This document shows positions 1,478 through 57,557 of a stretch of 64,000 nucleotides of DNA, piece after piece. The DNA comes from Mytilus edulis. Lineage: Eukaryota. Position 1 is the first letter of the stretch, and each line of letters opens with the position of its first letter. The notes under the pieces are model-generated. The model did not search any database. It saw only the letters and a list, made by a program, of their open reading frames with translations, and was not told where the DNA came from. The stretch spans positions 45,198,001 to 45,262,000 of the forward strand of contig NC_092351.1 of the NCBI RefSeq assembly GCF_963676685.1, given 5' to 3'. A program made the translations under genes and the position numbers.

Positions 1478-1945
1478 GGTGTCAGACCACCAATTAAAAA
1501 TCCCTATCTGTTCAACCAAATTTTGCAATTTTCACAGCTTTCTAAATATATTACCTTAAGTTTAACTTCAAGGAAACCAGGTATATCCTGAATTGTACAT
1601 GTATCACCTTCCTACATGCCAATTTTCAACCAATGTTTAAAGTCTTGTAACAAATTTCTGATTTTGAAAAGACAGGTACTACCAAAATAACTCCCGGTTT
1701 TCTGGAAATCTTAAATTAGTGTACTATGTAGCGCATTAATCCTGAATTTTTAATGCAAACTCATAGACAAGTGAATTTTGGCTCAAAATGGTCTAAATAT
1801 ATTTCCCTTTCACCAAAAGTTTCATTTCTGCAAATTTGTTGATTAGTTTAAGTAAACAATGACATCAAAAGCACTATTTTGTGTCAAAGTAGGACTACTT
1901 TTACATACGTTCTAAATTGGAGGGAGTAATTGGTGGTCTGACACC
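1478..1945. mobile_element. MITE (468 bp) with GGTGTCAGACCACCAATTA TIRs, flanked by TA
   Basis: Perfect 19-bp terminal inverted repeat; empty site in the paralogous repeat at about 4194-4220. Confidence 0.82.
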
Positions 1946-2519
1946 TACAATATACAGAGACTCTCAGTGTTCTGTCTACTGTTTTCTTTGAAATGTTTAC
2001 TATTGAAGGGGTCATACCAGTTGCATATATATATTAAAATAAGTAAAACATGTGACACAAGTACAACCAATCGTATGATAGATAACAAATATGAAAAATA
2101 AATAAGCCATTCAGAGCGTTCTCTATATCTTGTTGTTTAAATCGCAAGAATCACAACTATTTTACCTCTTTAGAGAGGACAATTATTTTTCGCGTTTCAT
2201 ATAATGGTGATAGATCACAAGAGCCACAACTATTATACCTCCTTAGAGAGGACAATTATTTTTCACGTTTATATATGTTACAGTAAATAGGTGAAATTAG
2301 GAATTACATGTAATTACTAAAATTTAGGAATTACAGGTAATTCCCGATGCACTTAGTTAATACAGGTAATTCCTGAAACGGCCCAGTTATTACCAGTAAT
2401 TACTAACTTTAAAATGAGTTTTTACACCTATTTACTGACTGCTAAAACAATGTTTTATTATGGTCAGATGATCAAAAGTTATGGTAATACTAACTAGATG
2501 ATCAGTAAGTACTCTTAGA

Positions 2520-2760
2520 ATATTGAATGGTTGATTTGTATTCAAAATATCTTGAATAATTATGGACTTTCAAATATTTGGTTAAATCTGAGTAACTTTA
2601 GTTTTAATCCAAAATGGTTAAAGTTAAGCATTATACAGATAATTTTTGACCAATTTCAGCAGACATGGAAATCAGAAATGGAAAATTCTCCCAAAGCATT
2701 ATGTTTTAACTTTTTTCAAAACAACTTTGAGTTTGAAGAATATTTAGACTTATTACCTTA
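2520..2760 (+). mobile_element. Non-LTR retrotransposon ORF2 C-terminal fragment
   Basis: ORF 2531-2794: GLSNIW...WLK...FDQFQQTW...NSPK...FEEYLDLL resembles the post-RT region of invertebrate LINEs. Confidence 0.55.
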
Positions 2761-3055
2761 TAATTTAATTTTAACGGGTCTTCTGATTGGCTGACGTTAT
2801 TTTGTTATGAGCCCATAGACATAATTTAGTCATGTTACCGTGACGTCATCAACGTTTTTTCATGGTTTTCTACGGTTAAATATGGAATTTACAATTAAAT
2901 TATAAGAAATGACTGTAATATATTTTCTGTCTATTCGAAATAACATAAAAAAAAAATGTGGTGCACAATGTTACGCTACGCTCGTTATTCAGTATGCACC
3001 AAATTTTTTATGTTATTTCTTCATAGACAGAAAAAATATTACAGTCATTCCTTAA
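2760..3055. mobile_element. Short element ending in a long hairpin (stem 2903-3054)
   Basis: aatgactgtaatatattttctgtctat / atagacagaaaaaatattacagtcatt arms, apex cgctacgctcg. Confidence 0.65.
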
Positions 3056-4626
3056 ATAAAGATCAGATAACATTGTGAAGGTAAAGAAAAGGAATGAACT
3101 GTTATGTGCATTAGCTTCGAGATATAAAAAAAGTTAAATATATATATTTTTTTTGTTGTTAAATCATTAATAAAAATGATATAGTGAAATTATAATTCAC
3201 TGTTAGTAGCCAATCCAGTTCTATAATTAGCTGAGAAACAAGGTTGATGAGTTGTGCACTTGCGAGTGAATATTTGGACCTCATTGAATACGTATTCATG
3301 TGACCTTCAATTCAACCCCTAGCTGAAGATGGGTTATCGATGTATTAAGCTATTAAAATTGTAAGGGTTTTGCAGAACAAACAGTCTCGAATACTTTTGC
3401 TATTAATCGCAGGCTCAACAAAAATGAGGAAAAAATGTTAACATTTTCCTCTAGATACTATCTTTAACTAGTACTATAAGAAACTTCTGTCAAAATTGGG
3501 TAAAAATCCAGGATGGTTTATAAAATCTAATGTTTTAAAAACTTAAACTTCAGAGTGTATGCAATGTTTACTGGGAAAAAACTAGTCCATTTATCCTGAT
3601 TATAATTGATATAGGAAAAAAAAGGATTGTTTTTACAAGCTTTACTTTCGGATATTATCTTATGATCATAACATTTAGCTTCTGTCCAAGTTTGATAGAA
3701 ATCCAAGATATTTGGAGAAAGTTATTTTAAAGTTTTAAACCACAGCGCATGATTGAGATTTTAGTTTAACAAAATTATGAAAATCAATTTTGGATTGATA
3801 TCATTGTCTTGCATGCATACATTTACGGAATTTCAAGACATATAAAACAACCATTTTCCAGTTTCAATTCACAAACAGTAAAGAGTATGCACTTTTGATG
3901 TGCCTTATATTCCTACATCCTCAAGTAAGCTCCCTTAAAATCCCTACCCCTTTACTTTCTTATTTTGAATCTTGAGTTATGTTTTTAATTTTAAAACAAA
4001 AAATCAAGTTAGTAAATAGCTGTAAAAATGTCCAAAAAAATCAGTAATTACCAGTAATCACTGAAACAACTAGTAAATACAGGTAATTACTAAATTGTCT
4101 AGTAATTACAGGTATTAACTGAAATGTTTAGTAATTACGTGTAATTCCTAATTTCACCTATTTACTGTAACATATATACATGTAAACTACGAATATACTA
4201 CTTTAATATATAGAGTCTCTGTTTTCTGTCAGGGACTTTCTATGTTAGTATAGAAAGTCCCTAATTCTGTCTACTGATTTCGTTGAAATGTTTACTTTTT
4301 AAGGGGTTATACCACTTGCATATATATTAAAATAAGTAACACATGCTCAACTTCATCTAAAACTACCTCGAGCAAAAACTTTAACCCGAAGCGTGACAGA
4401 CGGACGACCAAACGAACGATCGCACGGATGCACAGACTAGAAAACATAATGCCCATAAATGGGGCATACAAATTAATTGTTGAAAGGGAAAATAGTGATT
4501 TGGCAAAAATAAAAGTATGTTAGAGATTAGAGGAAGGCATGACCTTTTTCTGGGCGTCGGGATCGGGTGTTAGTAAGCTCGGGATTTGGGGATTGATCCT
4601 TACGGGATCAGGGAATATATTTTTCA

Positions 4627-7900: not shown

Positions 7901-8820
7901 TAGAATCAAATAAAAATGTAAATACAGCTGTTTCTCAAACCACGCCTCTATTTGGAAGAAATTGAATAATCATAGATAATTAACTTTGTTTTTGGTTCCC
8001 AGTTCTGATCTGTAGGTTGCATCTCATAGAGACGTATCTTGGGAATGTTACCAGTAAATATACATGTAAATATTGTTTATATTGAAATCTGTGGTAACCT
8101 TACAGTCGAGGTAGGGATATTTAAGAAATCTAGTGTTAGTTTAAACCCTTAGAAGTTCGGGGAATATACACGTTGAAAATATGGTGTACAGCCCTATATT
8201 TTGATCTTTGTAAAAAGTAGAGGTGCGTATGAACTTTCCACTCTAGTATATGATTTTTTTTCAAAACTTCAAAGTAAAAGTGGTACAGTTTAAGCCGTAA
8301 AGGGAGTTCCTATGGAAAAATGCATTGTTTATATTTACAGAAATGCAAACTAAACATAAATTTGTTTCATGTGTGAATATGTTTTCGAAGACAAATTAGG
8401 AATAGATATTTACCTATGGTAATTTGAAGCATGATAGTCGTATGACCTCCGATTTTTGTCATGTTTAAGTTGTTGTATGTTTTTGTTTTAGTAACATAAG
8501 CAAATTGATAATAAAAGTACAAACCATTTATATGTTTTGTTGAATTGTTGGTTACTTTTTTGTAAATATTATGGAGCAAATTTATGAAAAAACAGAAGAT
8601 TCTCAATTTCTTATAATAATGCTGAAGTTTTATAAAGCATCTTATTGTTCTGGATGCCGTTCTTTGATAGCGGATTAAGAAACTAGTTAAAAGCACTAAA
8701 ATATAAGTTGTAAAACACTCTCTAGAGGCCGAGATGAAACGGTTTTTTCGTGTGTTTTTTTTGGTGTAATTTATGCAACAAATACATGATAGAGATCTTC
8801 GAATGTTAAGAAAACGCCAT

Positions 8821-9145: not shown

Positions 9146-9157
9146 ACGTGCATCTTA

Positions 9158-11653
9158 AAAGAGGGATGAAAGATACCAAAAGGGCAGTCAAACTCAAAAA
9201 TCTAAAACAAATGGACAACGCCATGGTTAAAAATGAAAAAGACAAACAAAAAACAGCACACATGACACAACATAGAAAACTAAAGAATAAACAACACGAC
9301 CCCCCCCCCCAAAAAAAAAACAAACAAAAAACAAAACAAAACAAGGGGTGATCTCAGGTGCTCCGGAAGGGTAAACTGATCCTGCTCCAAATGCGGTACC
9401 CGTCGTGTTGCTTATGTGATAACAAATTCGGTAAATAGTCTTATTCGGTAGGTCACATTCATGAAAGGGAAGGTGATTGTAGTTACGACGTAAGGAACAT
9501 ATCCGATATCATTTGTGAAACGGTTATTCCATAACGGTTAACCAACTCGTGATGGCATCCGTAAAATTTACGAAGGGATGATTTCAACATCACCATTTGG
9601 AACTCTTGGTTTGATAGCTTCCTTGTGAGCAGCAACCCTCTATCAAGAAAATCATGATAGGAAATGCAAGCACTGGAATATCGTATCAATTGGGAGATAT
9701 ATATCCCGTATGCAGGTGCTGCTGGAATGTTGCGACCCTCTTTGTCAATTTTTAGATGTAAGTCAAGATATGAGGCCGACTTAACTGTATCTGTAGTATC
9801 CCTTATCTCTAGCTCGATGGGATAGATGCGTTCCACATAGTCACCAAATGTTGAATTATTTAGTGAAAGAACATCATCTATATAGCGGAAATTAGAGTTA
9901 AAGGATATTGCTAACTTCTTATCTTTCTTCCTAAGAAGTTCCTGCATGAAGTCAGCCTCATAATGATAAAGAAACAAGTCGGAGAGTAGAGGGGCACAGT
10001 TTGTTCCCATTGTGATGCCGACAGTCTGTTGAAAAACACGTCCTCCGAACGTAACAAATATGTTGTCAATCAAGAAATCAAGCATCTTGATAACATCAGT
10101 TTCAGAGAATTTTTTGTTTGAATCAGAGTGGTCCTTTACAAAGTAGGATTTATCCCTCCCTAAGACAAAATACTTGTATCTACGTTGGCCATTCTTTTTT
10201 ATAAAGCAAAGCAATACCAACACTTTCAATTTGTCTCTTAGTTTGGAATGTGGAATACTAGTATAAAGAATAAAAAGTCAAATGTTTTAATACTGTTACA
10301 AGATGAAAGAGAGTTAGATTGTATGTACTCTAAAAGATTTTTGGAATTTTTAAGTATCCACATCTGATTCACGCCCCCTCTAGAATAGGCAGTTTCACAA
10401 TAACTTTGAAACCGGTCTTTGATTGCTGATAAAATGGATGTTAATAATTTAGAAAGAGGTTTTGTGGAGCACTTGGAAGACCCAGCAATATACCGTTGTT
10501 TGTAAGGACACTTATGTAGTTGAGGTATCCAATACAGTGATGGAAGATCCAGTTCTTCATCTTTGGTTGAAATTCCAAAGGAACACAGAACAGACCTATG
10601 ATTATCCAGGATTTCCTCTTTGGTAAGTGTCGTGAGGGTATATGTTGAGTTTCCAAGAGAATTGTCAATACCTAATTCGTTTATCAAGCAGTTAATGTAA
10701 TGAGTTTTACACACAAAAACGATGTTGTTTGGGGCTTTATCTGCGGAGACAACAAAATATTTGTCACGGAGGTAGGATAGGTGTTTTGCAACATTTGGGT
10801 CTTTAAAGATTGATGTAGCATGGGCATTGATAGACCGATTCAGTTTCTTAATTCTGATTTGTATCAACGACCTCACTGCCTTAATCCATTCGGAAAGAGT
10901 GTCTACGTCTTCCTTCTCGCGCTTAGTCTATTGCCTGGCATAATCCTCAACTGAATCCATCAAAATTTTAAAGTTGTATTTCCAATTGATGGATTTAGGA
11001 TCACGATATTTCGGACCTTTCGATAACACATTTCGTAGAGAAGTGTTATTAACAATGTTGAGGTCACCGGTAATAACGTGGCCAGGAGGATTATATGTGA
11101 ATTGGGAAGTAGCACAAGTGCAATCAGGAGGTTGAGACTTGAAGTCGTGAATATCGAGATCCTGCAAAACGTGTTTGTAATTGAAAATTTCAGTTGCAAT
11201 AGTTTGGTATCGGTATAGGATATTGCCTAAGTTGACGCCATCGATACCTTTGTTGGCAAAGGAAAGATTAAGGAAAGTTCTTTTCTCTTTTTCAGCTTTG
11301 CCAATGCGGACTAGCTTGAAAAGTCTGTGACTTGCAATATCCGAAATTATAGCTGTACTTTTGTATTGGTTTGAATGAGGGTTTGTAACAGTGGATTCCG
11401 ATCATAAATGGAACAGAGAATGAAGTTTTGAAAGGGGTAATGAATAAAGTTTCATGCGAATGTGATGAATACCTAAAGGCTTTTGTATAAATGGCAGCAA
11501 GTCATTAATAGATATATCATGCAGCGAAGGTGATGTATAATGACGATGACCAGGACTGCATCTACGTCGAGGAGTCGAGTTGAAAATATTCATCACATTC
11601 ACCGAGTTACACGAAGGACTAGACAGAATACCTATACCATCAATTTTGTCATT
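9158..11653 (-). mobile_element. 5'-truncated, inactivated Penelope-like retroelement (probably Naiad-type, RT at C-terminus)
   Basis: ORFs 11402-11602, 10928-11167, 10238-10876 and 9483-10229 form one broken frame with RT motifs (LYWIPQLHK, TFDF, GITMGTNCAPLLSDLFL, FRYIDD, YLDL, AYGIYISQLIRY). Defects: TAG at 10928, frameshift near 10270, loss of the YDKRDD segment near 9733. No endonuclease follows the RT. Confidence 0.85.
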
Positions 11654-12962: not shown

Positions 12963-13417
12963 CTATTTTGAGCACACAACACATGTCAGAGGATAATTGT
13001 GTATATAGGGAGGACACTGTAAGGCTCCACACTTTGCTAACACAGAAAACAATAATTTGCCATTAGTATCTTGAACACCAGCATTTAGGTATTCAGGATG
13101 GCTGTCCACGCATACATATGATGACGCGGCTGCATGACCATGATCTCCCGAACCTAGATATCCATGGTATTCTATATTCCATCCGTTATAACATTTGTTC
13201 TTCCCAGGAACCATAAGGATTGAAGTTGAACGTATCTTTCTGCAGACAGCACATGGTACATCTTCATCATCTTTACCAAAAAAGTTCGTTTCGTATTCTG
13301 CGCCATACATACGTCCGCCATCAGAACCACTAGTCTTCACAAAATCTGGATCTGGTGGAAGACAGACATACTCTGCTGCGGAACCTGGATTGGTATAATA
13401 TCCACCTCCAGCATAAC
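12963..13417 (-). CDS. Exon 3 (terminal) of short-chain collagen C4-like protein; spliced product 250 aa
   Basis: Acceptor ttttgttag at 13418; GYAGGGYY...YVCLPPDP...YGAEYE...DVPCAVC...EYHGYL...YVCVD...CGALQCPPY...LTCVVCSK* matches the Cys pattern of the invertebrate short-chain collagen C4-like family; TAG at 12963-12965. Confidence 0.9.
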
Positions 13418-15562
13418 CTAACAAAAATAGAAAGGTCACGCTTTAGACAATAATCAAGAAATAGAAGAACATGTATCCGACTTCTGGTTCATAAATACAA
13501 AAATTGTACAACGATCTATACAATCTGCTGTCGTATGGTATTTTAATAGACTTTCATATTCATTTTTTGGAGTATATATAAAGTTAAAAATAAATTTAAA
13601 TTGAAAAAAAAATCATATCTATTTTTTCCTATTTGAAAGTATTTTTCATTACTCTAAATTTTGAATGAAATTTGTTGTTATAATTTTTGAATTCAATTTT
13701 AATTCCGTAACATATCTTCCTCGCTTAAAGATGTTTCAATGTCTGAATTTGAGTATAATGTTACCTTTTTATGGATTAAATTAGATTCTCAAAGTTTCCG
13801 TAAAGTTTTGGATTTTGAAATATTTTGGCCTCAAACACTTCTATAGAATCATTAATTTGGGAAATAGTAGGGTGTCCAGTATCGGAAAAGACGCCTAGTT
13901 AACGAGTTTAAGTTAACAGATAACACACGGCTATATTTATAAATTATGCAAACTAATGGAAAATCATTATATTTTCCAATCATGAATGTCGTCGTACGCT
14001 CCTGTGCTCACGTGTTTTTTTTTAAATTTGTAGTTTCTTATTGTACCCAAAGATACCTCCTCATACAGGCCATCTTCAACACGAAAAATAAAGGTATTGC
14101 TGTCTGTGTTATTTGTTCAAATGATAATAATCGTTTAGCTTTAACATTTAATTGATCATATAACGAAAGCTGAAAAGATTTATATAATTTAAATAATTTT
14201 AGTAAGACTATGTTTTTAGTTGAAAGTTACCACATTTTGAACGAAAGAAAATTTATTGCGTGAAACTTTCACAGGATTTTACTCTGATACGTATACATCA
14301 ATAAGACATGGTTCATATGTGTGCCAAATATCATTCGTGTAATGCCAATTTGTGAAAAGAAAATAGAAATTTTAAACACAGTGATAATTCTGCCTTGATT
14401 CAAACACGCCTTTTCTCGTGCCGTTAATCGTTTTGTAGCTTACACTATCAGGAGTTGAAGTCATAAAACTTCGCTCAATGCTTGGAGCACAAACATCATG
14501 CTCGAAAGATGAAATCAAGCATTTTGATTGGTTGATTTAAGAGTATGAGTACAAAAATCTGATTCTAAATTGTCAAGGCCAGGTCATTAACTAGGACAAT
14601 TGTCACTAAATTCATTACTTTTTTTGGCTTGTTGTAAGGTCGATTTGTATGTTTTGGATAGTCGAGATAGATAGAGGATCGTTGTTTTATATTAGGAAAT
14701 ATTTTGGAATGGAATAAGTGTGTTATAGTTAAGGGTTCTTCTATTGAATTGCTTATAAATATGCGAAAAATCAACACAAACAAAAGCTTTATCGAGGCTA
14801 TGGGAGCACAGAAAGATCAGGTATATTTTAGTATATTGCATGATGCTTCAAACCTAACCCGTCGTACAGATAATTACAAAATATTGTATCACCATTCTAG
14901 TTATGAATCTTATACTAGCAGACACAACAGCAGTTATTTTAAATTTAAATCAAATTCTTGTTCGTCTGTAAAAGTGTTTCAGGTCATATAGAGAAGGTCG
15001 TCAAGTTCTTGCCTAGAAAAAGTTTTTTTGAGTCAGTAAGAACCAGCAGGCCTTAATCAGGTTTCTTGACGAATCAATTTTGCAGCATCATGGTATATCA
15101 ACAGTTACTATGATACATGTGTTGATTGGGCACCCTACTAAAATGCGCATCTCGTGAACTAAATTTGGTATCTTTAACATTGTATTTTTTATAATTTACG
15201 ATGTCTGTAGATTTGAAAACGTGAAACTAGAAACACATACGAAATACACTAACAAACGACAACCACAGAACAACATGCTCCTGACTTAGGACCTTGAACA
15301 GTGGAATATAAAAAAATGTTTTAGTAAATGCTGATGCATGTTTCTTTCAGCGACGCTTCCGTTTTTTGTTATCAGTCTGTTGACGCACCAGTATTACTAT
15401 TGTCCTCATCTTATTTGTTTACTCTAACTTCTGTTGCATCAAATTTATAGAAATATGGCTACATCTGTATTTTGGAAGACCAGAATATAACATTTAAATT
15501 GTTTTTGTGTCGTTTACATTGACTTAAAACACCCTTTTATTTTATCATTTAAATAGATATAG

Positions 15563-22530: not shown

Positions 22531-22966
22531 GGTTGCACTTTGTAAATACAGCTGTTTCTCAAAACACGCCTCTTTTGTGGAGATCTTAAATATTCATAGA
22601 AAATTAATTTTGTTTACATCCTGGTTCCCAGTTATGCTCTCTGTGTACCATAACTTGGGAATGTTACCAGTACATTTACATGTGCATATTGTTTACATTG
22701 AGATCTGTGGTAACCTTTCATTCGAGGTAGGGGTAGTTAAGAAAATTAGTGTTTAGTTTAAACTCTGAGAAGTTCAGGGCATATAAACGTTGAAAATATG
22801 CCACACAGCCCTATATTTTGACCATTGAAATAAATTGTGGTGCAAATGAACTTTCAATTCTAGGATAAGATTTTTTTCAAAACTTCATAGTAAAAGTGGT
22901 ACAGTTTGAGCCGATAAAGGAATTCCTATGGGAAATTGCAATGTCAATATTTACAGAAATGCAACC
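22531..22966. mobile_element. MITE (436 bp), GGTTGCA...TGCAACC termini, TACA on both flanks; truncated copy at 7917-8349
   Basis: Imperfect TIRs ggttgcactttgtaaata / tatttacagaaatgcaacc; colinear homolog starting tgtaaatacagctgtttctcaaa at 7917. Confidence 0.75.
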
Positions 22967-23011
22967 TACAATACATTTCTTTTGGCAGGGATAACGTTAA
23001 GGTCAGCATTT

Positions 23012-23408
23012 TAGACGAAACGCGCGTCTGGCGTACTAAATTATAATCCTGGTACTTTTGATAACTATTTACACTACTGGGTCGATGCCACTGCTGGTGG
23101 ACGTTTCGTCCCCGTGGGTATCACCAGCCCAGTAGTCGGCACTTCGGTGTTGACAGGAATATCAATTATGTGATCATTTTATAAATTTCCTGATACAAAA
23201 CTTTGAATTTTTCGAAAAACTAAGGATTTTCTTGTCCAAGGAATAGATTACCTTAGCCCCATTTGGCACAATTTTTTGGAATTTTGGATCCTCTATGCTC
23301 TTCAACTTTGTATAGTTTGGCTTTATAACTATTTTGATATGAGTGTCACTGATGAGTCTTATGTAGACGAAACGCGCGTCTGACGTACTAAATTATAATC
23401 CTGGTACT
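23012..23408 (+). mobile_element. Non-LTR retrozyme: one 352-nt monomer plus a 45-bp terminal repeat
   Basis: Direct repeat 23012-23056 / 23364-23408 (period 352, one mismatch), each containing the hammerhead 3' half GACGAAACGCGCGTC; no ORF. Confidence 0.85.
23343..23386 (+). ncRNA. Minimal type I hammerhead ribozyme
   Basis: gtgtca-CTGATGA-GTCT(tatgt)AGAC-GAAAC-GCGC-GTC^-tgacgt: intact CUGAUGA/GAAA/GUC core, 4-bp stem II, stem I with two G.U pairs, palindromic stem III region (ACGCGCGT); predicted cleavage after 23380. Confidence 0.92.
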
Positions 23409-23956
23409 ATTTAATTGGTATAAAATTGCAGGCAGTTTCATTCTGATTTGTGATGATTTATCTAGACACTTGTATATTCATTAACTTTCACCTTTAATTG
23501 GTATCGAATTATAAATACTATTCTAATATGACGTGCTTCTTTCGCTTTATGAATAAACTCGTGCTCTTAATCCAATAAAATTGTTGGCAAATGCGTTCAT
23601 TTACTACTGCAGAATAATGAACTTTATCAAAGTGGCATGCATGCATTTAATATATTTCATTAACTTAAAACACTTAAACATGTTAAATGATGCACATGTT
23701 GTGATCAATTCATTTATTATGACTGTAATGTGTTGAAATTGGAAATTGATATATTTGACCTAGATACGACAACCGTTCATGCTGGCTGTTCAAACTCCTC
23801 CCTCTGAAAAATCACATTGCCATTCGTTTTCTTGTTTAACTGAAACAAAAAAGGGAGGTCCATGGAAGAGCCTACAAAAACGATCTACACTTATACACCG
23901 GACATAGAAATTACCTTCATTGTCCTAATCAGAATCGACACAATTGATGCAAGCTA

Positions 23957-28296: not shown

Positions 28297-28440
28297 GCTG
28301 CTGGTGGACGTTCTCTTCCTGTGAGCATCTAAGCTAAGTAGTCAGGACTTCTTATTGACGTCAAAATGTCAGTGATATATTAGTAGTTATTCTGAACTGT
28401 TTACAAAACAACGTTGATTTTTTTTCCGAAATACTAAGGA
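28297..28440 (+). repeat. Degenerate fragment of the same retrozyme family
   Basis: gctgctggtggacgtt...agtagtc...ttgac...cgaaatactaagga aligns by eye with 23091-23227; no ribozyme core. Confidence 0.5.
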
Positions 28441-28542
28441 TCAACACAGTGGCACCTAAACGATTTAGGCTCAATAAAAGATGCAGTCTTGAATTTAATT
28501 ATATACCATGTAAGTTATTGCTCCTGGTAGAATGTTTTTGAT

Positions 28543-30810: not shown

Positions 30811-33800
30811 TGATATGTAGGTGACATGCCTTCCTCCAGAATAATACATTTTTGTATATGCTGGTTTAAAAAGTATTATACATTATTATATAAGACTGTG
30901 GCTGCTAAGAATTCAATTTCAAATCACTTTGCCTTGGAACTCAGATCAAAATAGCACACGACTTTGTGTTCGACTTAAGAGTTTGAATGGTCAGTTTCAA
31001 AATAAATAACTTTTTTATACACAGCTAAATTAGTTGATTTACTTTGCACTCTAAGTATATACTTGTACAATTTCAGGCATACATTTTCACAAGGAAATTA
31101 ACTATACTTTTGCTCTCATTTATAAGAATTAATATTTAGTGATTTTTAAGATTTCAAGTGCCTCAAATTTGGGAACCACATTTTAAAATAGGCATGAATT
31201 GTTTGATAGAAATATGAAGATTTGTATAATTGTTTGATAGAAATATGAAGATTTGTGTATATTTGATACTACCAAAAACACCTTTTAGTTACATAACAAA
31301 ATCAATTTCACCTTAACATTCTCCCATCTGTTTTTTAGACTCTATAAACTTTAATAAGTTGACTAGTAATGTAGTGCGAAATGTTGACGGTACACGCATG
31401 AACAGTTTATTAACATAAACTATTAAACCATTAATTTTTCATACCGTCATACCGTCCTGTTTCAGTTATTGGAAGGCAAGTCTTTTTTTCATATTTTATA
31501 ATATTGCTTTAATTTAGTATATATGCTTGTTCATGTCTATGCTTGTGAACCAAAGTTTGAAACTCAAATCATGTTTATCGATCTGAGCTGGATCTTTTAT
31601 TAATCTTGTCTATATAATACGCACGGAAATTCAAGTGGTTAATATCAAGACAGAGTTATCTTTATTTAATTCATAATGTATGTTGATATAGTCAATATGC
31701 GACGGCGATGGTATTTCAATATCCATAACGATTCTTTTCACCTAAAATATCAAAAAGTTATATCAAAAAGAATCCTGGTTTGTAGTTAAGTGTGTAGTTG
31801 CATTTTGCTATAGTTTCGGTTTAACTATTTTTTTTATAATGTGCTGTTTCTTACGAACGTGGAACTATAGAAAATTACCTTTCTTTTCTTGTTTTCACAC
31901 TAGAATAATAGTAATGAAATGATATGATGGAATGCGTTGAAAAGGCTTGTAATAAAGTTTCAGATTGTTATAACTAACGATGTAACAACATTCAGGTTCC
32001 AAACTACATTTGGTCAAACTCATAAAGGGCAGCGAGTAGACTCTTTCAATTACTTATTCGAATATTAAATTTATGTGATTGACGATAAAGAATTATGACA
32101 TACATACGATTGGAATTGGGACATTTAATCTGTACCTCGTTTGGAGAGAGTGACACACTATCTCCACGTTAGAGAAATCTTACAACAACTTCTAAGGGGT
32201 CTGTAAATTATTTTTTGCATGGTGTAAATTCTGCCCATTATCCAATCCCTTGACTGTCAAAATTCTTGCCATTTCCCCATTGTAAAAAGGGCATTGATAA
32301 TATATCTCGGTTTCACAAATGGATTTAGTTTTAACTGATTTGAATAAAAGTTTATTATAAACTGAACCAATATTTTCTTCCAAGAAGATGGCGTATGATT
32401 GCCAATGAGACAAACCTCCACCAGATACAAACGATAGTGGAATGAATCAATTACATTCCGCACTGGAGGTTATCGTACGACCGTCAACAATGAGCAAATC
32501 CCATATCACATAGGAAGCTATACAAGGTCCAGGCATGACAAAGGGAAACATTCGAACGAAAAAACAAACGGCCCGATTTATGCTTAAACACTGAACGAAA
32601 ATAAAATATGGCATCCGACAACGATTATACAACAGGCTTCTGACTTCCGGCAGTCACAACATGATTGGGTAGGAATAAACATGTTTGTAAGTGCTCAACA
32701 CTTCCATCTCAACCCGATACTGTCGTGTAACAGCACAACGTAAAAACAAACTGTAAAAATCATTTATGAAGGATTTCTTTTTCATTAGATTGGAGAAAAA
32801 CATAAAAAGTAGGATGTTACTGATCTTAGAGTACTCCCAATTACAGAAAGCTATTTAGAAACAAATTACGATTACTACATAAATCAGGTGTCGCAACATA
32901 TGTCTATATGAATAATTCATGCAAGCGTCTATTCATTGCTGTATCTCTTTCAAATCAATAACCAAAACAGTGGAATATTTTCAATTCAATGGGTCCCAAA
33001 TGTAACGTCATTGGGACGTGACTTCACATATCAAATGACGTCATTATTGGTCATGTTGTCACTTTTTAAAATAAGCGGCAGCAAGAGGTTGAGTATTCTT
33101 GTGATTTCATTCAAACATTGATCAAAAACTGGTATTTCATTCTCTCTGATTAAAACAAAACCGGCACACATGGTTGTCGATGGTTGCTGTATGCCGCATT
33201 CGTTTTTCGTTTATTTGTTTATAGCACTCATAAGCTGGTTTTGATTCTTGTATTGTTTCACATTTGGTCATACATGGGGCTTTTATTACACGGTACGGAT
33301 AGTACCAATTGTTGAAAGCCGTGTGGTGACATATAGTTGCTTACATTCTAGTACTTTGGTCTTTGGTTGATTGATGTCTCAATGTTAATTATACTTAAAC
33401 AAATTCAACAAATATTTTACTGACAAAGTAAGATTGCGAATATAATAAAGCAACTGTTCTAGAAGTTGCTACAATAACATTCTAACCTTGACTTATCAGT
33501 GAAAAGTGAATGGTGCAAACTGAATAGCAGTAGAATGTTTATTTCTGTTTGTTGTTATAAAAAAAGCTAAACGCTCTAAAGTGATCACAAACGTAAGCAG
33601 CATATTTCAATTTTGTCACTAATTTGTAAAATATTGAAATAAAAATGAAAATGGGTACCCATCGCAATTGGGACTGTTTATGTTATTATAACCCCGGATA
33701 GACCGTAGAGTTTATAGTCAGTGATAAACCCTTTTTATTCTTTTCTTTCTGTAGGATAATAATGAAACTTTTGTTTTGGTTTAATGTTATCATTTATATA

Positions 33801-35175
33801 ATCTGGCTATCTATCGTAATAATTGCTTTACTGTATATAAATCATACGAGTACTTATCGTCAAATCACTTGTTACTGGGTGGGTGGCACTTCAAGTACTA
33901 ACAGTTCGCAGTATCGTAAGATACTCAGATACTTTATGATGTTCTCCTTATTTTTACTTCTTTTTAGTTCATTTTCCGTCATTTATGAGATGGTCTACAA
34001 TAAGAAACGTTCAAAGGTTGTTAAATGATCTTAAATGTTCATTTAAGAAAGCAAAATACTGCCTTTCATTATTTCAAAGGAGCAACTCATCCTTCAAGAT
34101 CTTTCGTGCGTAACTGAAAACATCAGTTAATGGAGTATAACCGCCATATATCATGTATATGAATCTAAATAAGATGGTTTATGTAGTATGAAACATAATT
34201 TACGGAAATTTTTTTTTTTTAAAATCGACTATGAATTATTTAATAAAACGTAGTAAATCGGATATGCTAGTCAATGATACAATGAAAGAAATGTATGTAG
34301 GTCACCGGCTTTCAGCTATAAGTAGAACCCATCCAGTATATTAAGCTATAAATTGTGTACATGTACTTGTTTTGTTATTATCAGATTCTGCATGTTTCGG
34401 GTCTTTGAATCTGAGTTATATTGCATTTAAAAATGTCAACCGTAATGGCCTTTATAACATATTTGCTCTCTGATTCAGTATTCGTTAATGGAAGCTTTAA
34501 CGTATGAAATTAATTAAGAAGAACTTTGTACATGATAAAATTGAAAAAAACACACAAATTCTTACTAGAACATAACTGTTAGTAGAACTCGCATATCTAT
34601 ACTAAAAAAGATATGTTAGCAGAACTCACAGATTCAAATTACCGCTCCCCATGTCGGAAAAGCCGGTAACTGTTTTACGAGCAGAATGTACATGAAATGC
34701 AAAATTGTTTATATATATGGCTAAGTACATGATGGACCCTTGGAAATATCAAAACTAATTTAGACCTAAATGTATAATGTCCGACTTACAATTTCGTAAT
34801 GTGTTAAGATTGTTCGCAATTTACAATTTTACTGTGAAATAAAACGGTGTTTAATGAAAGAGTTGTTGATTCAAGTGTCATCAGATGTGTCTAATTTATT
34901 TCAGATTTTGTTATGATCAAGTTTTTCTAAAGGAATTCCTCAATCAAAACAATAAGATACATTATATAAAAACATTAAAAAGAAAGTTCCAATGCAATAC
35001 GGGTTGGCAGATTGTGAAAATGTTTCAGAACAATTCGGTTAGGAAGTCCTCAAAGGAACAGCTATGAAATCCAGGTATTCGAAAAAGTCTTCTCAAAATT
35101 AAGTCAATAAGGAAAACAATTACTTTTTTCAATGCAATACAACAGATTGTGTAAATATTTCAGCACAATCCGGTC

Positions 35176-36468
35176 ATTTCACGCAAAGATGAAAAACTGG
35201 ATCTTCCATCACTGTATAGGATACATAAACTACATAAGTGTCTTTACAAATAACGGTATATTGCTGGGTCTTCCAAGTACCCCATGAAACTTCTTTTTAG
35301 ATTATTTACATAAATTTTATAAGCAATCAAAGCTGGGCTTCAAAGTTATTATTATACTGCCTATGCTAGAGGTGGCGTGAATCGTAGTGGATACTGAAAA
35401 TTCCAAAGATCTTTTAGAGTGCATACAATCTAAGACTCTTTCATCTTGCAAAAGTATTAAAACATTTGACTTTTCTACACTTTACACAGGCATTCCACAT
35501 TCCAAACTAAATGGCAAACTGAAAAATTGGTCCTGCTTTGTTTCATAAAAAAAGGGCCAACATTGATACAAGTATCTAGTCTAAGGGATGGATCAATCCT
35601 ACTTTGTAAAAAATCACTTAGTTTAAACAAAAAATTCTCTGGAACTGACATTATCAAGATGCTTGATATCATGATTGACAATATATTTGTTACGTTTGGA
35701 GGACGTGTATTCAACAAACAATCGGCATTCCCATGGGAACAAACTGTGCCCCTCTTCTTGCTGACTTGTTCCTTTAATCATATATTGCTGCATTTAGTCA
35801 GCAATTGCTTTGGAAGAAAGAAAAGAAGTTGGCTGTATCTTTTAACTTTACTTTCAGCTATAAAGATGGTGTTCTCTTACTAAATATTTCAAAATTTGGT
35901 GACAATGTTGAACACATCTATCCAATCGAACTTCGGATCAAGGGAACAATTAACAGATACAGTTAGATCTACCTCATATCTTGACTTATTTCTATGATGA
36001 GGGTCGGTTAAAAACAAAAGTTTACGACAAAAGAGATGATATCAGCTTCCCAATTGTGAACTTTCCATTTTTATGTAGCAACATTCCAGCAGCACCTGCA
36101 TACGGAGCATATGTCTCCCAGTTGACATGATATTCCAGGGCTTGTATTTCCTATCATGATTTCCTTGATAGAGAGTTGTTGCTCATAAGGAACCTATCAA
36201 ACCAAGAGTTGAAAGTGGAGAAGTTGAAATCATTCCTTCGTAAGTTTTACGGACGCCATCACGAGTTGGGTGACCGTTATGGAATATCCATTTCACAGAT
36301 GATAGCGAATATGTACCTAATGTCGTAACTACAATCCCGTCACTTTTCCCGAATGTGACCTACCAAATTAGACTTATTACCGGGTTTGTACTAAAATAAA
36401 GAACACAGTTGGTATCACATGTGGAGCAGGATCTAAATACTCTTCCGGGGCAGTGAGATTACCCGTAG
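35176..36468 (+). mobile_element. Penelope-like RT relic, copy 1 (5' and 3' truncated)
   Basis: Homologous to the reverse complement of about 9350-10572 (KMLDxMIDNIFVTFGGRVF, YDKRDD, NIPAAPAYG); many frameshifts. Confidence 0.85.
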
Positions 36469-39400
36469 TCAACCACATTAACAGACGACAACCACTAAAC
36501 GAAAGTCTAGTTAGTCTTAGATACATAGGCTGTTATTGACTTTGCACTAGCTGTCAGTATCTGTGAGTACTTTCAGATCTGTATTTTGTGTCTTTTTTGT
36601 TGCGAGGGATGTATAAATTCCCTGTCACGTCCGATCTGTGGTTTGTTGTTTTTCCGCTAATTTGCATCGATCAAATAAGTTAAGTTTCAACTTATTTTTA
36701 TAGTTTGTTATTATGATTTACTGTTACACCACTATCCCATGTAGGAGGAGTTGACGCCAGCAGACTAGTTTAACCCCGCCACATTCTATATCTGCCTGTT
36801 CCAAGTTAGGATCCTGTAATTTAGTCCTTGGTTTTGGTGCTTTATACCATAATTGTATTTCATTCATTGTTTTGTACATAAATGAGGCCGTTTGTTTTGT
36901 GGCCCTTTATAGTTTACTATGCGGTATAGGTTTTGTTCATTGTTGAAGGCCGTATGGTAATCTATAATTGTTAACCTCTATGTCATTTAGTCTCTGATGG
37001 AGAAATGTCTCATTAGTAGTAATACGACATTTTCTTATTTTAATAATTAAAATCTATCACTAGAGCTAAATGCATTGGGATTTTCTAGCATGTTTACCAT
37101 GGAGAATAGAGATATTCATTCGTGATCGATTCGAACGTTATGGTAACTTTGCCTAATCTGTTGCAAAATATTAGGATCGATGGACTGATCTTGTTGTTCA
37201 AACATTACCCGCACCATACGAATCTACATTAATTCAAAGAGTGATATACAGGAATAATACGCAATCACGAAATGAAGACGTAGTTACTCTTTTTGAATGG
37301 ATGAAGCATGAGAGGTCAATTATAGTTGTCAACGTCTTCAGAGTTGCATGATGTAGATCATTCCTAGACAATGAGTTGTTTCATTTTATCAACCCTCATA
37401 CACTAAGATATTGTCGCCATCATATCTTAACGAAAGAAAACTGTTTAAACATCGATATTTTCCTAGATGGCCTTAACTACATTTAGATTAAACCTTTTGG
37501 TAACTTTTGAATTTCATTGCTTTTCAACTATTATTTTAGCATTCCATCGGTGGGGCATATATCGACAAATGCGTGATATGTATTCTTTTTATGATCAAGG
37601 TATATCTTACAGGAATTTTCCGTGCGGGTTGCAAACATTGTACTAGAAAAATTAAAATAACAAAAACAACGAACTTCGAGGATTATTTTAAACGGAAAGT
37701 CACTAATCAAATGGCAAAATCAAAAGCTCAAACAAACCAAAATGAATAGATAACAACTGTCACATTCCTGACTAGGAACAGGTATTTTCCTATGTAGAAA
37801 ATGGTGGATTAAACCTGGTTTTATAGCTAGCTAAACCTCTAACTTGTATGACATGACAGTCAACGATGCTTATAAAACAAAGTTGGTTTGAAATTAGTTT
37901 AAGTTGAATGTGTTCGTCTATGCCAACTATTTTAGACAGTAACCTGTTAGGATCGCCAAACGTGGTTTAGAATCTGAATCTAGTTTGAACAATAGAGAAT
38001 CGTTTGTTCGTGACTTTATTACGTACGTTTCACCACAGTGACTGAAATTAAATAACAAAGTATATTTGATGAGTTTATTTGTAACGTTTTATATTTCAGT
38101 GAACGAATACTTAGATTGCTGGTAAATCACGAAGTCGGGGACTTTGTTTCAATGTATCATTTAAAATTTGACCTAAATTTGTTAGAGAAATAAATGCTTG
38201 GTTCGAAAGTGTTGCTGTTCCTTTAGAAACCTTATTACAAACGGAATATTACATACCAGTCAAACATGGGGATAAAACTGCTTGAAACAATAGAAACTAA
38301 TTACTAGTTGAATCATTACAAACTTCGTTATAAAATTCTGCAATGTAAGCATACAGTGGGATGGCCAATTTAGTTTGTCATTACAATTGTTTGACATTTA
38401 AATACACTTAATATCTAATGAGTAAGTGACATGTACTATTCTAAGCCTCTTGTTAGGGTGACCGATTATAGTATGGAACCTGCATCTGATAATACAAAAT
38501 GAGGTATAACAATCGGATATTTAATTGCATACTGGGTTGATATTTTCAACACATTCTGTTATAACTTTTCATTGCTATTATTCGAGTGTGAAATCAAGAA
38601 AAATAGGCAATTGGCCGTTTCAGAAACTAAAAGACATTTCTATTTAAACAAAAATTAGAGCAAAATGCAAATTACCTACACACCAGGTTGCAACAATATT
38701 TACTAGACTTTCGTTTAGTGGTTGTCGTCTGTTAATGTGGTTGATGTTTGTATCTCGTTTCTCGTTTTTTTTATATATACATTTAACCGTTGGTTTTCTT
38801 GTTTGAATTGTTTTACACTAGTCATTTTGGGGCCCTTTGTAGTTTTCTGTTCGATTTGAGCCAATGCTTCGTGTTGAAGGCCGTACTTTTGCCTATAATT
38901 GTTTACTTTTAACACATTGTGACTTAGATGGAGAATTGTCTCATTGCCACTCATTCCACATCTTCTTATTTTATTTCGAAATGATATTAATCTTTGTTGT
39001 ATCAGAACGACATAGGTAATCATTCTACCAAGCATTAAATGAAACTGGTATTCCCTTAAACTTTACCCCAACTGTTAGGTAATACCGCCATTCATCTGTT
39101 TAATTATAATACTTCGCATTCTGGAGTTGATTCTCTTGTTTTACTAATGAAATGTACATGTATAACATTCTTATTCTTATTTCTGCGATAAGTATCTGAA
39201 AAGAATTGACTTCAATGAATATATTACATAATATAATATCAATACGTATACAGGCGTAAAATGAAGGTAGTTTCAATATTCAGTTGCAGAGCTGTCACGA
39301 CGTAAAATTCCGCATACTAGTATATTTGAAATTTAACCAACTTTACTGCATGTAATATCTCTTTTAATGATGTAAAAGCATATCGGTAAACATCCTACTT

Positions 39401-39870
39401 TTACGTAAATATTCTCTCTTCTTTTACATTATGTAAATAATACTTATCGTAAACTTCAAATATAGATGATATGCAGGTCCAATAAAATATATCAGGCTTT
39501 TAATCGCTTCAAATCACATAATATTCATCATGAATGCTTTGCAAATCATGTCATAGACGTTAAGCAAACTAAATGGATCATTAAAAATTAAATGTCGATT
39601 ATTCAGTCCATGTACAACGTTGCATGTATAATGAATCAAAGCATTGACAATAAACACGATTTAGTTCTATTGTGACCAGATTGAAATATATTTTAGTCAT
39701 AATTTATGTGCGTACAGTTTCAGGGTAAAACATTTCAAATGATTTTTTTCATTTTGTCTGATTGCCTTGACATCTGCAAAGTAAAGTATTTAAGAACGTT
39801 GATGATAACTATAACAAAAAATAAAAATCACAGTTTCTTTCTTATAAAACGTTTTACAAATATGTATATA

Positions 39871-42175
39871 CTCGAGGCTGAGGTTGACAAATTAGACTTT
39901 AAATGTAGGGACTGTGTCATAACATTGATTATCGATTTAAACCCGTCAAAGATAATGTTGACCGTCTACCATATATACTGGTTCATTTGAATTAAATTAA
40001 TTTATAGTGTTATACCGAACATGTTACAAATGTTTATATATTCTGATATCATTGCTTACGATTGCAGGACAGGATGGGTATACGTTTAAGCCGCGAGGGA
40101 TTAGCAGTATTGCAGGTATCCGTATATTGTTTTTTTTTTAATTTGAATTCATCTTAAGGTTACAACGTCCTCATCTTAGCAATTTAGCACACACAAAATG
40201 CAATGCTTCTATAGGTTACATGATAGAGTAAAAACAGTTTACAGGATAGATGTTGATACTGGTGTTATATCGTGAACGTACATTCCTAGGCCTGTTATCA
40301 AAAACAAAAAGGCAAAAAAGTAAAACATATTTGAGGGAACTATTTGATGTTGGGTTTATTAGAAAAGGGAAAAAAATATGAACATTAAAATTGCTGTCTT
40401 AGACTTACACTGCTGGTGGCTGAAACCCAATTTTTATAGGTATTTTTCGTTACAACATGGAAAAAGAAAAAAGCAATCTGTCAATACACAGAAAAAATAT
40501 ATTGAACTTTTGTTCGTACACACCACCTTATTTGCCATGGAAAACAAGCTGACATTTGTAATTTAATTTCTTGCATCCTCTTAAAATGAACTTTGGGGGA
40601 TAGTTGTCTCATTGGTAATCTTACCACATATTTTTTTTCTCGATACCTTTGTTAAATCGCCAAAAATCCTTTCCAACATGGTAACAGGAGAGACAAAATA
40701 TTGCAACACATAACACAAAATGTTTCACTACTTCGTTTATGATGTTATAAAGATTGCAATTGATAATACATGTAATATGTGTTCTAAAAATATTTTTTTG
40801 TTATAATTTGCTTACAAAGAGGTTGTTTTAAACTATTTACTTTAATCTAATTTTGCAACTTCAAAAGTCGACATATTTTGAAAATGACACATACAATTAG
40901 GAGATAAATGTATTGTTTTTAAGGTTCTACGGCATCAAATGGCACATGGTGCCGTTGGAGCTTAAAAAACAATATTGTTTTATCCATTTTAATGAAACTG
41001 ACTGAAAACAACGTCAAAATCATACATTTAAAATCAGCCTTACGTCGTCTGCGTTTACGACTACGTTTTCATAGCATCAATTGTGAATTGATGCAATGAA
41101 AATTGGTGGCGTTATCAAATAAAAAAAAACAAAAAAAAAACGTTACAAACAATTTTCATTAGAATAAACGGCGTTGCATTATTTGTAACTAATCCATAAG
41201 GTCTGAACTCGAGTTAACGCACCGTTAAGTTAAAAGCTCCGTCGATATAGTTTTAAAATTGTAAAATTAAAAATACTAAGTACATGAACATGTACATTTG
41301 TAGGTTTAATTTAAAATGGTAGACTGAGGGTTTCTGCCTTTTTGTCCCGAACTCCTTATTTTCTACTTCTTCTCTCTCTTTTAATGTTGAATTCATTTCC
41401 TTTCTCTAATCTCCTTGCCCCATGTCAGTGCTCCAAATGGAAGACAGATTATGAAAATTATAATATTTCTTCCTCATGAAATAAATGTTTTGAAATATTC
41501 GTTTAATACGGAATATTTACTATGGAATAATCAATGATAATGTTTGAAAAGGACATATGTTATAAGGAACGAATACATTTTGTTTATATCTGAACAAAAT
41601 GAAATATGGAGATGTGGGATGGTTGCCAATGATCATGAGACAATGAGACAACAATTAATCAGAGTACAGCTTATAACTATGAGAAAAATCCATACCGTAT
41701 ATTCAACTTTAATAGGCCCGACTTGAAAAATGTAAAATGATTAACATCCTTAGTTATAACAATACAATTTTTAAGAAAAATGATTTAAACAACCACTTAA
41801 TTACAGGCTTCTAATTTAAAGAAGGCACATAACGTATGTTGCGGGGTTGTATTTAACATTTTTGTGAGCGATGAATCCCCATAAATCGGGATAGTGGTGT
41901 AACTGTATCACGTAAGAACTAACTGTTGAAAATAGCTGAAATTAAAAGATTAGTACAAAGCACAAACAACAAATAACATCAAATAATAGACGATATATGC
42001 ATCCTCACAGTTGCATGAACTGAAAGCTAGTTCAAAACAATTTACATCTCATAAATAAATCCTGTTTTCCCAGTATAATGATACACAGGTTCTAGTAGTT
42101 TAAATCTTTAAATCACTTTTGTATTTTGATACAATAACCACATTTAAAGTCAAATTTGTCAACCTCAGCCTCGAG
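39871..42175. mobile_element. Putative 2.3-kb non-autonomous TIR element flanked by TA (Tc1/mariner-like); duplicate at 51695-54000
   Basis: 36-bp inverted repeat CTCGAGGCTGAGGTTGACAAATTWGACTTTAAATGT at 39871-39906 and 42140-42175 (1 mismatch); TATATA on both flanks. Confidence 0.6.
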
Positions 42176-45100
42176 TATATACCATTTCAAACATATCTAC
42201 TATATGTAACATTTTGTCAACAAAATTAATTCAATCGGCGTACATGACATGCATATCTATTCTGTTACCATCACTAAATCAATTGCTAAATTTTTCCGCT
42301 ATGAATATGGAAATATTCAGTGATTCAGATCACCAATCATCACATGTGTCTTGTATATCACTGTAGGGAAAAGAAAAGACATTAAATGGAATAAAAAGTA
42401 AGTGGATAACCTTGTATCCTGTCGTCCCTGTTACCTACAAATAATAACAACTATCTCATTAACATTGAGATAATTAATATCTACATTCAGCTGTTTTGCA
42501 ATAAAACAATAGAAACATACCGTGTTTGTATGCCATTCTGGTGAATATGAATGCTAACTGTAACAATGACGATAATTCATTCTACAGCGAAATTTAAAAG
42601 CCGAACAAATAATTTCGATATGTAGTGGAAAACGACCTAGAGCTTACACACAGCTAAATTAGTTGATTTACAATAAACTCTAAGTATATACTTGTACAAT
42701 TCCAGGAATAAATTTTCACAAGGAAATTAACTATACTTTTGCTCTAACTTATAAGGATTAATATTTAGTGATTTAAGATTTCAAGTGCCTCAAATTTGTG
42801 AACCACATTTTAAAATAGGCATAAATTATTTGATAGAAATATGAAGATTTGTGTCAATATTTGTCATGATACTACCAAAAACACCTTTTAGTTACATAAC
42901 AAAATCAATTTCACCTCAACATTCTCCCATCTGTTTTTTAGACTCTATAAATTTTAATAAGTTGACTAGTAATGTAGTACGAAATGTTGACGGTACACGC
43001 ATGAACACTTTATTAACATAAACTATTAACCATTAAATTTTCATACTGTCATACCGTCTTGTTTCAGATATTAGAAGGCAAGTCTTTTTTCATATTTTAT
43101 AATATTGCTTTAATTTGATATATATGCTTGTCCATGTCTATGCTTGTGAACCAAAGTTTGAAAGTCAAATCATGTTTATCGATCTAAAATGGATCTTTTA
43201 TTAACCTTGTCTATTTTGCAGGGAAATTCAAATGGTTAATATCAAGACAGGGTTATCTTTATTTAATTCATCATGTATGTTTGATAAAGTTTATATGCGA
43301 CGACGATGGTATTTCAATATCCATAACGATTTTTTTCTCCTAAAATATCAAAAAGTTATATCAAGAAGAATTCGTTGCAGCATCCTGGTTTCTAGTCAAG
43401 TGTGTTGTTGCATTTTGCTATAGTTTTGGTTTAACTATTTTTTGATAATGTGCTGTTTCTTATGAACGTTAAACTATAGAAAATTACCTTTCTTTTCTTG
43501 TTTTCACACTAGAATTATAGTAATGATATGATATGATGGAATGCGTTGCAAGACCTGTAATAAAGTGTCCGATTGTTATTACTTACTATGTAACAACATT
43601 CAGTTTCCAAACTACAATTGGTCAAACTCATAAAGGGTAGCGATTAAAATCTTTCAATTACTTATTCGAATATTAAATTTATGTGATTGACTATCAAAAA
43701 TTATGACATGCTATTTTGTTCATTAAGGTTGCAGAATGTTACATCGAAGTTTGTATTAATTCAACTAATAATTAATTTCTATTGTTCAAATTAGATTTAC
43801 TATAATGTCTGACTTGGATATAGAAATAGGGTCATCCATCGCATCTCTACAGTCGGTCAGTAAAACATTGCTGACGATGTTGGGCGTTGGTGTGGCTTGG
43901 TGTTTCTTTAAATACGCAACCACGTACGATTGGAATTGGGACTTTTAATCTGTACCTCGTTTGGAGAGAGTGACACACTATCTCCACGTTAGAGAAATCT
44001 TACAACAACTTCGAAGGGGTCTGTAAGATACTTTTTGCATGGTGTAAATTCTGCCCATTATCCGATCCCTTGACCGTCAAAATTCTTGCCATGTCCCCAT
44101 TGTAAAAAGGGCATTGAAAATATATCTCGGTTTCACAAATGGATTTAGTTTTAACTGATTTAAATAAAAGTTTATTATAAACTGATACAATATTTTCTTC
44201 CAAGAAGATGGTGTATAATTGCCAATGAGACAAACCTCCTCCAGATACACACGATAGTGGAATGAAGCAACTACATTCCGCACTAGAGGTTATCGTACGA
44301 CCGTCAACAATGATCAAATCCCATATCACATAGGAAGCTATACAAGGTCCAGGCATGACAAAAGTGGAACATTCGAACGAGATAACAAACGGTCTAAGTT
44401 ATGCTTAAACACTGAACGAAAATAAAATATGGCATCCGACAACGATTACTATATCACAGGCTCCTGACTGCCGGCAGTCACAACACGATTGGGTAGGGTT
44501 ATACATGTTTGTAAGTTCTCAAAACTTCCATCTCAACCTAATACTGTGGTGTAACAGCACAACATAAGAACAAACTGTAAAAATGATTTATAAAGGATTT
44601 CTTTTTCATTAGATTGGAGAAAAACATAAAAAGTAGGATGTTACCGATCTAAGAGTACTCCCAATTACAGAAAGCTATTTAGAAACAAATAACGATTACT
44701 ACATAAATCAGGTGTCCAAACATATGTCTATATGAATAATTCATGCAAGCGTCTATTCATTGCTGTATCTCTTTCAAATCAAATACCAAAACAGTGGTAT
44801 ATTTTCAATTCAATGTGTCCCAAATGAAACGTCATTGGGACGTGACTTCACATATCAAATGACGTCATTATTGGTCATGTTGTCACTTTTTAAAATAAGC
44901 GGCAGCAAGAGGTTGAGTATTCCTGTGATTTCATTCAAACATTGATCAAAAACTGGTATTTCATTCTCTCTGATTAAAACAAAACCGGCACACATGGTTG
45001 TCGATGGTTGCTGTATGCCGCATTCGTTTTTCGTTTATTTGTTTATAGCACTCATAAGCTGGTTTTGATTCTTGTATTGTTTCACATTTGGTCATACATG

Positions 45101-57200: not shown

Positions 57201-57557
57201 TATTTCTGTTTGTTGTTATAAAAAAAGCTAAACGCGCTAAAGTGATCACAAACGTAAGCAGCATATTTCAATTGTGTCACTAATTTGTGTAATATTATTA
57301 TAAAAATGAAAATGGGTACCCATCGCAATTGGGACTGTTTATGTTATTATAACCCCGTAGAGTATACAATTAAAATTGCAATTGTTCTGAAGTGCAAAAC
57401 CTACAGCAAATTATTCCGAAGATGAAAAATTCATTCGTTCTATTATTGAGTGTGTCAAAAGCCATCATCGTCCCACATTTTTAAAACTTTACTTTGTGTA
57501 CTGTAGGCATTCAATTCTAATCAGTGATAAATCCTTTTTGTTCTTTTCTTTTTGCAG

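Follow-up and report, generated by a model that had tools for sequence, protein, structure and literature searches.

A truncated, mutated hammerhead retrozyme in Mytilus edulis and a hairpin that its family has in common with Naiad elements

The element near position 23,000 of the window, which is the whole 64,000-nt stretch of DNA analyzed here, is probably a 5'-truncated, mutated and likely inactive insertion of a retrozyme that was likely copied by a Naiad enzyme. It is a copy of an already described family. The evidence on the copying enzyme comes from the family, whose copies end at a fixed point directly before a hairpin related to one that precedes intact Naiad ORFs. The features of the window are as follows.

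23012-23028 (+): 3' half of an upstream hammerhead, with the 5' truncation point at ~23012 and a GUC ending at 23028
23029-23380 (+): full 352-nt non-coding retrozyme unit, from cleavage site to cleavage site
23067-23073 (+): end point of most copies in the family (+39 to +45 of the unit); putative internal start of reverse transcription
23074-23135 (+): GC-rich 62-nt hairpin, homologous to the hairpin before intact Naiad ORFs; predicted recognition signal of the helper enzyme
23343-23386 (+): complete type I hammerhead, its core intact but its stem I made weaker by T23344, with a predicted cut after 23380
23381-23413 (+): 3' tail of the insertion, with the unit match reaching 23408 (+28)
9156-11653 (-): broken 5'-truncated Naiad with 84-88% protein identity to the intact 1000-aa family

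The hammerhead at 23343-23386 consists of a CUGAUGA core, a 4-bp stem II and GAAA, and its GUC ends at 23380, 352 nt from the GUC that ends at 23028. The original prediction had described this type I hammerhead, the 3' half 352 nt upstream and both GUC ends, and all of its coordinates were confirmed, together with its reading of the stem I 3' strand as TGGCG in the upstream copy and TGACG in the downstream copy. A comparison with Rfam Hammerhead_1 aligned over model positions 1-45 of 45 with 31.8 bits (E 5.4e-6), slightly below the gathering score of 34. A scan of the window at gathering level therefore returned no match, and the hammerhead is visible only in the E-value scan. The element is absent from the Tandem Repeats Finder listing of the window. 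Stem III sits inside the palindrome ACGCGCGT and is formed by 2 bp and a tetraloop, so the word "minimal", which had been applied to this ribozyme, departs from published usage. Minimal PLE hammerheads, in which helix III is made of conserved letters only and which lie in the pLTR of a coding PLE, were considered as a class for the window ribozyme and rejected; no homology was found between it and the hammerheads of the intact PLEs compared. The accompanying claim that cleavage depends on dimers is not supported, as the published mussel monomer cleaves at ~0.1 per min, with abundant circles and ligation by RtcB (PMC7229834, in the text available).

A genome-wide copy count, suggested earlier as a check, gave at least 7,451 hammerhead copies in the 1.37-Gb genome as exact matches of a 36-nt ribozyme stretch, and 0 matches for the reversed control, so the hammerhead match is not due to chance. 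Units of 352-356 nt, most commonly 353 nt, form arrays of up to 11 sites with a period of 351-366, and a second subfamily has a unit of ~364 nt (359 exact matches of one internal pattern). The family accordingly shows the tandem units of 150-450 bp and the many dispersed copies by which retrozymes are recognized. The element is non-coding, with no overlapping stop-to-stop frame of 100 aa, and the 2-kb bin around it has 34% GC, under the 50% used for retrozymes. Six loci from a metagenome scan all resemble the two known subfamilies, and no distant relatives appeared in that scan. Within the genome, 51 of 60 units have their nearest unit in their own array, and ten units in one array differ by at most 1 letter.

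The type I hammerhead, the unit length and the tandem dispersed copies bear out the earlier assignment to a ~350-nt retrozyme of the mussel kind. Matched by description, the window element fits the published family of Mytilus galloprovincialis, for which the available text of Cervera and de la Pena 2020 (PMC7229834) gives ~5,000 hammerheads and two families with repeats of 350-390 bp. The two species are alike in the type I hammerhead, the non-coding tandem units of ~350-390 bp in thousands of copies, the two related subfamilies and the length of the monomer, which is 353 nt in DRtz_Mg353 as in the commonest unit here. By these descriptions we find no difference in kind, except that the window copy is truncated and mutated. 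It holds one complete ribozyme and a 3' half, rather than the two consecutive complete hammerheads of the criterion of Li et al. The single complete ribozyme counts against an active locus and leaves membership of the retrozyme family untouched.

The wear of the window copy is evident along the unit. The sequence from 23029 to 23380 departs from the majority of 46 other units in 12 columns and has 13 differences from the nearest unit among those compared. The earlier description of the ribozyme as intact holds for the catalytic core but not for the rest: T23344 stands where 44 of the 46 other units have the family C, and the forced hammerhead fold is weak, at -1.5 kcal/mol in the linear form and -0.9 kcal/mol across the circle junction, against -5.7 kcal/mol for an array copy. 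In none of these three is the hammerhead the favored fold. A target-site duplication was looked for near the ends of the window copy and none was found.

It had been predicted that the window copy itself yields a 352-nt circle, and we consider an active source at this place very unlikely. Its core is intact, and a fold that forces the downstream core onto the upstream site is modeled at -95.4 kcal/mol (-90.1 for the local fold and -105.2 unconstrained); on this fold, cleavage at the upstream site too would in principle be within reach of the downstream core. In RNA the family has good coverage, with 6,039 reads aligned over the stretch from 8.7 million records of one RNA run, of which 6% was read and whose animal may lack the window insertion; the strand bias fits + strand RNA in the usual stranded library. 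Against this, only one complete ribozyme is present and its stem I is weakened, the private letters of the copy are nearly absent from the RNA, the depth is zero in this partly read run over the downstream flank 23428-23499, and no promoter was identified for the copy. At four private positions the reads carry the family letter: 23075 (112 of 113), 23115 (97 of 99), 23138 (48 of 48) and 23156 (28 of 28). The window copy is probably silent, and this can be put no more firmly because the sampled animal may lack the insertion; among the read joints listed, none skips the element as an empty allele would. One 70-nt contig matches 23384-23453 without differences, with fewer than 31 letters on the element side. 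The unit junction is spanned by 169 reads, and a circle and a tandem transcript give such reads alike. A Pol III promoter was considered from box-like words found by eye and rejected, since several T runs lie on the + strand. T runs would stop Pol III.

Copies of the family have scattered 5' ends and a fixed 3' end. In genome order, 21 of 25 loci (30 minus 5 duplicates) have their end between +39 and +45, counted from the cleavage site; of the four exceptions, two belong to the second subfamily and two end earlier by ungapped matching. The same end is found in 18 of 22 best-hit loci. From the second subfamily, 29 of 30 loci entered the analysis; the downstream end was in view in 25, all of which (25/25) end in one 7-nt window at the homologous place. 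The RNA reads leave the element at 23069-23071 into mixed flanks (50, 34 and 39 reads). The window copy and one array match only to +28, short of this end, and a loss of 10 nt would bring the letters after 23408 of the window copy into line with the usual +43 end. The insertion would be the product of ~1.1 turns of a template.

The 5' ends bear on the form of this template. No pile-up was seen at the cleavage site, with 41 ends at +1, 47 at +3 and 28 at -1, and 9 of 12 inspected +1 matches are true truncations. A cut linear monomer would yield only ~42-nt copies beginning at +1, so the missing pile-up means that the main template is continuous across the cleavage site, being either a circle or an uncut multimer.

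The hairpin at 23074-23135 lies directly after the family end point and has a z of about -3 against shuffles. Homologous hairpins above the shuffle maximum precede 14 of 18 Naiad ORFs, in three families that are 55-64% identical in protein, and none was found before the other 4 of 18. Compared with the 1000-aa Naiad family, 52 of 62 letters are identical in the window hairpin and 54 in an array copy. In a covariation alignment of four retrozyme and six Naiad sequences, which are related and represent about five lineages, 10 of 23 hairpin pairs have compensatory changes and pairing is kept in 97.4% of cells, compared with 38-55% in slid controls; the structure used for this count was predicted on the same alignment.

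The same stretch, read on the other strand, raises a further candidate. A second, antisense hammerhead at 23100-23127 (-), as in ambisense viroid-like RNAs, would draw on the words CUGGUGA...GAAACGUC of the - strand, which are kept in most units of subfamily 1. We give this reading almost no credence and rejected it: the core has G for A, stem II has no closing pair, the Rfam scan contains no - strand hammerhead, the motif is kept in 0 of 29 subfamily-2 loci, and the stretch corresponds to the Naiad hairpin read on the opposite strand.

The retrozyme and the Naiads have more in common than the hairpin itself. In all intact 1000-aa Naiads with the 3' end in view (6/6), this end lies 0-4 nt short of the hairpin. 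Among 30 terminal Naiad rows, of which two repeat a locus, 25 end 0-6 nt short of it, and two of the misses run into the edge of the locus. Not counted here are six 3' ends from the 1053-aa family, as they had been chosen by where they end. A cis signal and an end register are common to retrozyme and Naiad, as expected of a Naiad-dependent non-autonomous element.

The Naiads concerned are identified by their protein domains. Three of them (L220, L219 and L095) have an N-terminal GIY-YIG, CxC, DKA and a C-terminal RT in one ORF, the diagnostic motifs being those given in the available text of PMC8557442. In L220, whose intact 1000-aa ORF occupies 1371-4355 of the locus, the GIY-like motif is at 135, CxC at 431, DKA at 558 and YIDD at 844. 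Pfam returned RVT_1 or GIY-YIG matches for the three proteins, two of three below the cut-off. Copies of the 1000-aa family are 98-99.9% identical in protein and its hairpin has 105 exact matches, 24 of them in one 83-nt array, and because of this identity and these matches the helper family looks young as judged from its sequences. The earlier proposal of a Penelope-like helper is likely in this narrower form, with Naiads as the group, but not with the elements of the window as the source of the RT. The four Penelope-like fragments in the window are all Naiads, and all are truncated, interrupted by stops or frameshifts and devoid of the hairpin; the broken Naiad listed above has its 3' end at 9156, a position that keeps the register relative to the missing hairpin.

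The Penelope-like families with a C-terminal endonuclease were rejected as helpers, having no sequence in common with the retrozyme in 20 regions and 30 short loci. One 13-letter match near such an element fell in its flank, and the hairpin scores at these loci are within the shuffle range.

Alternatively, a Naiad ancestor might have handed down the hairpin as a signal for translation, for RNA 3' processing or for promoter function, the fixed end being due to RNA ends at this place or to another enzyme. The position of the hairpin in Naiads, ~15 nt before the first ATG, is compatible with such a role, and the genome contains several other intact Penelope-like families. We nevertheless hold this to be rather improbable. 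The retrozyme has no ORF to translate and yet keeps the hairpin pairing, the RNA depth continues through +42 with no sharp start or end, and the other intact families share no sequence with the unit, three of them ending in (TA)n runs.

We lean, with modest confidence, towards a circle that has pirated the enzyme-loading hairpin of the hammerhead-free Naiads, with the Naiad enzyme priming before the hairpin and copying the circle in a rolling fashion. Transcripts of tandem copies on the + strand, of which reads were seen here, are cut by the hammerheads into monomers of ~353 nt, which a host ligase closes, as published for the mussel family. By analogy with the Poseidon enzyme of Anolis, from which we infer both binding and priming, the Naiad protein may then bind the hairpin at unit +46 to +107 and nick genomic DNA, with reverse transcription being primed 0-6 nt before the hairpin. 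From there copying would cross the ribozyme junction backwards and continue around the template until the enzyme falls off. Internal priming combined with rolling copying would account for the observed pattern, in which 3' ends are fixed, 5' ends are random and the units of an array are nearly identical. That the circle serves as the template is likewise inferred.

The same Naiad helper may use a different template, namely uncut linear multimers transcribed from genomic arrays, with the circles as a stable by-product. We judge this unlikely, though it deserves serious attention. According to the available text of PMC11167929, Poseidon uses unprocessed RNA and ribozyme cleavage is dispensable in vitro; Naiads themselves lack canonical hammerheads (PMC8557442, available text), and the missing 5' pile-up at the cut site fits a multimer equally. 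On the other side, the RNA occurs in mussel mainly as circles (PMC7229834, available text), and the ten near-identical units and the 51 of 60 own-array neighbors are explained most simply by one circular template. Furthermore, 2 of 16 arrays, L149 (C2302) and L150 (C4), have alternating units with the hammerhead cores damaged at alternate sites, a pattern expected from a circle of dimer length; this is suggestive only, and DNA duplication also explains it.

PAc Poseidon of Anolis offers a parallel: its enzyme begins reverse transcription within the RNA and depends on sequence that lies 3' of this point (Frangieh et al. 2024, PMC11167929). From the available description, the two systems are alike in an internal start downstream of a hammerhead and in genomic ends that mark the start; PAc Poseidon, unlike the retrozyme, is autonomous, with a C-terminal endonuclease and two start sites. 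The available text of Craig et al. 2021 (PMC8557442) shows Naiads with the same kind of tandem 5'-truncated insertions, in addition to the hairpin and the 3'-end register found here. They encode GIY-YIG and RT and have no canonical hammerheads, whereas the retrozyme is non-coding and has one; the words hairpin and stem-loop have 0 occurrences in that text. Chlamys MRC1-type elements are likewise non-coding tandem riders on a PLE with an N-terminal endonuclease, but as described there they have no ribozyme and resemble their helper at the 3' end. In vertebrates, sequence similarity links retrozymes to the termini of PLEs, whose enzymes they are proposed to use (Li, Clavereau, Pollet 2026, bioRxiv 10.64898/2026.07.22.740005, available text). 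In Xenopus the homology is in the pLTR and with hammerhead-bearing clades, whereas in mussel the partner is hammerhead-free and only the 62-nt hairpin is in common.

Which enzyme copies animal retrozymes, and how, is a question of the retrozyme literature. PLEs are listed as a strong helper candidate in the available text of PMC7229834, in which neither a fixed 3' end nor an internal start nor the name of a helper is given and "tail" and "truncat" have 0 occurrences. No paper stating the Naiad helper, the hairpin or the fixed end was found in a search that had most subscription journals and supplements outside its range. The hairpin and the end register single out a helper that can be named and of which young intact copies exist, along with a signal of 62 nt and a predicted place for the start, and this family-level Naiad signal makes the helper question directly testable in vitro. 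If the proposal is true, an animal retrozyme would have a named helper and a defined cis signal, and the hairpin would be the first recognition signal assigned to a Naiad enzyme; an enzyme related to telomerase would be guided by a short, portable hairpin in copying circular RNA into DNA.

Several other arrangements of the hairpin and the retrozyme were seen around Naiads. One locus (L250, G000:C12:78783742-78785699) has 24 tandem 83-nt units, each of a Naiad hairpin and a short spacer, that run into a Naiad ORF; L251 holds a similar dimer of hairpin units and L252 a deleted 201-nt Naiad unit in tandem. These arrays possibly arose by repeated re-priming at the hairpin. The 3' UTR of the 1007-aa Naiad family holds an old, 5'-truncated retrozyme, ~70% identical and with a dead core (L219:4993-5240 and 438-685; L218; L228:5239-5490). 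This old copy is present in 3 of 3 loci in which the UTR is in view, its end apparently falling at the usual +41 to +43, and is carried in both tandem units; its presence suggests a long coexistence of the two elements.

Other hammerhead-bearing repeats are found in the genome. One (L089, L099, L100, L104, L110) is 72% like the window ribozyme over 47 nt, with a spacing of 549 nt in L110; its stem III words are different and mostly still palindromic, which hints that dimer pairing is retained. A 440-nt tandem unit (L085, L089, L093, L106, L109) has a hammerhead-like core followed by a tRNA-like stretch, recognized by eye, and (TA)n ends. Penelope-like families with minimal hammerheads in their pLTRs occur at L094, L096, L097, L104 and L105, and two of the three (TA)n-ending pLTR families end at either of two fixed points ~35 nt apart.

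Within the window, a much older retrozyme remnant lies at 28298-28441, with 75% identity over 55 nt of the hairpin region. Another dispersed repeat is present at 22541-22982, just upstream of the retrozyme, and at 7917-8367, and its RNA reads are biased to the opposite strand. A cysteine-rich frame of 159 aa at 12963-13442 (-) has no Pfam match and resembles an exon of a short-chain collagen C4-like protein. The segments 32102-45520 and 43922-57357 form an 11.8-kb tandem segmental duplication with 98.8% identity.
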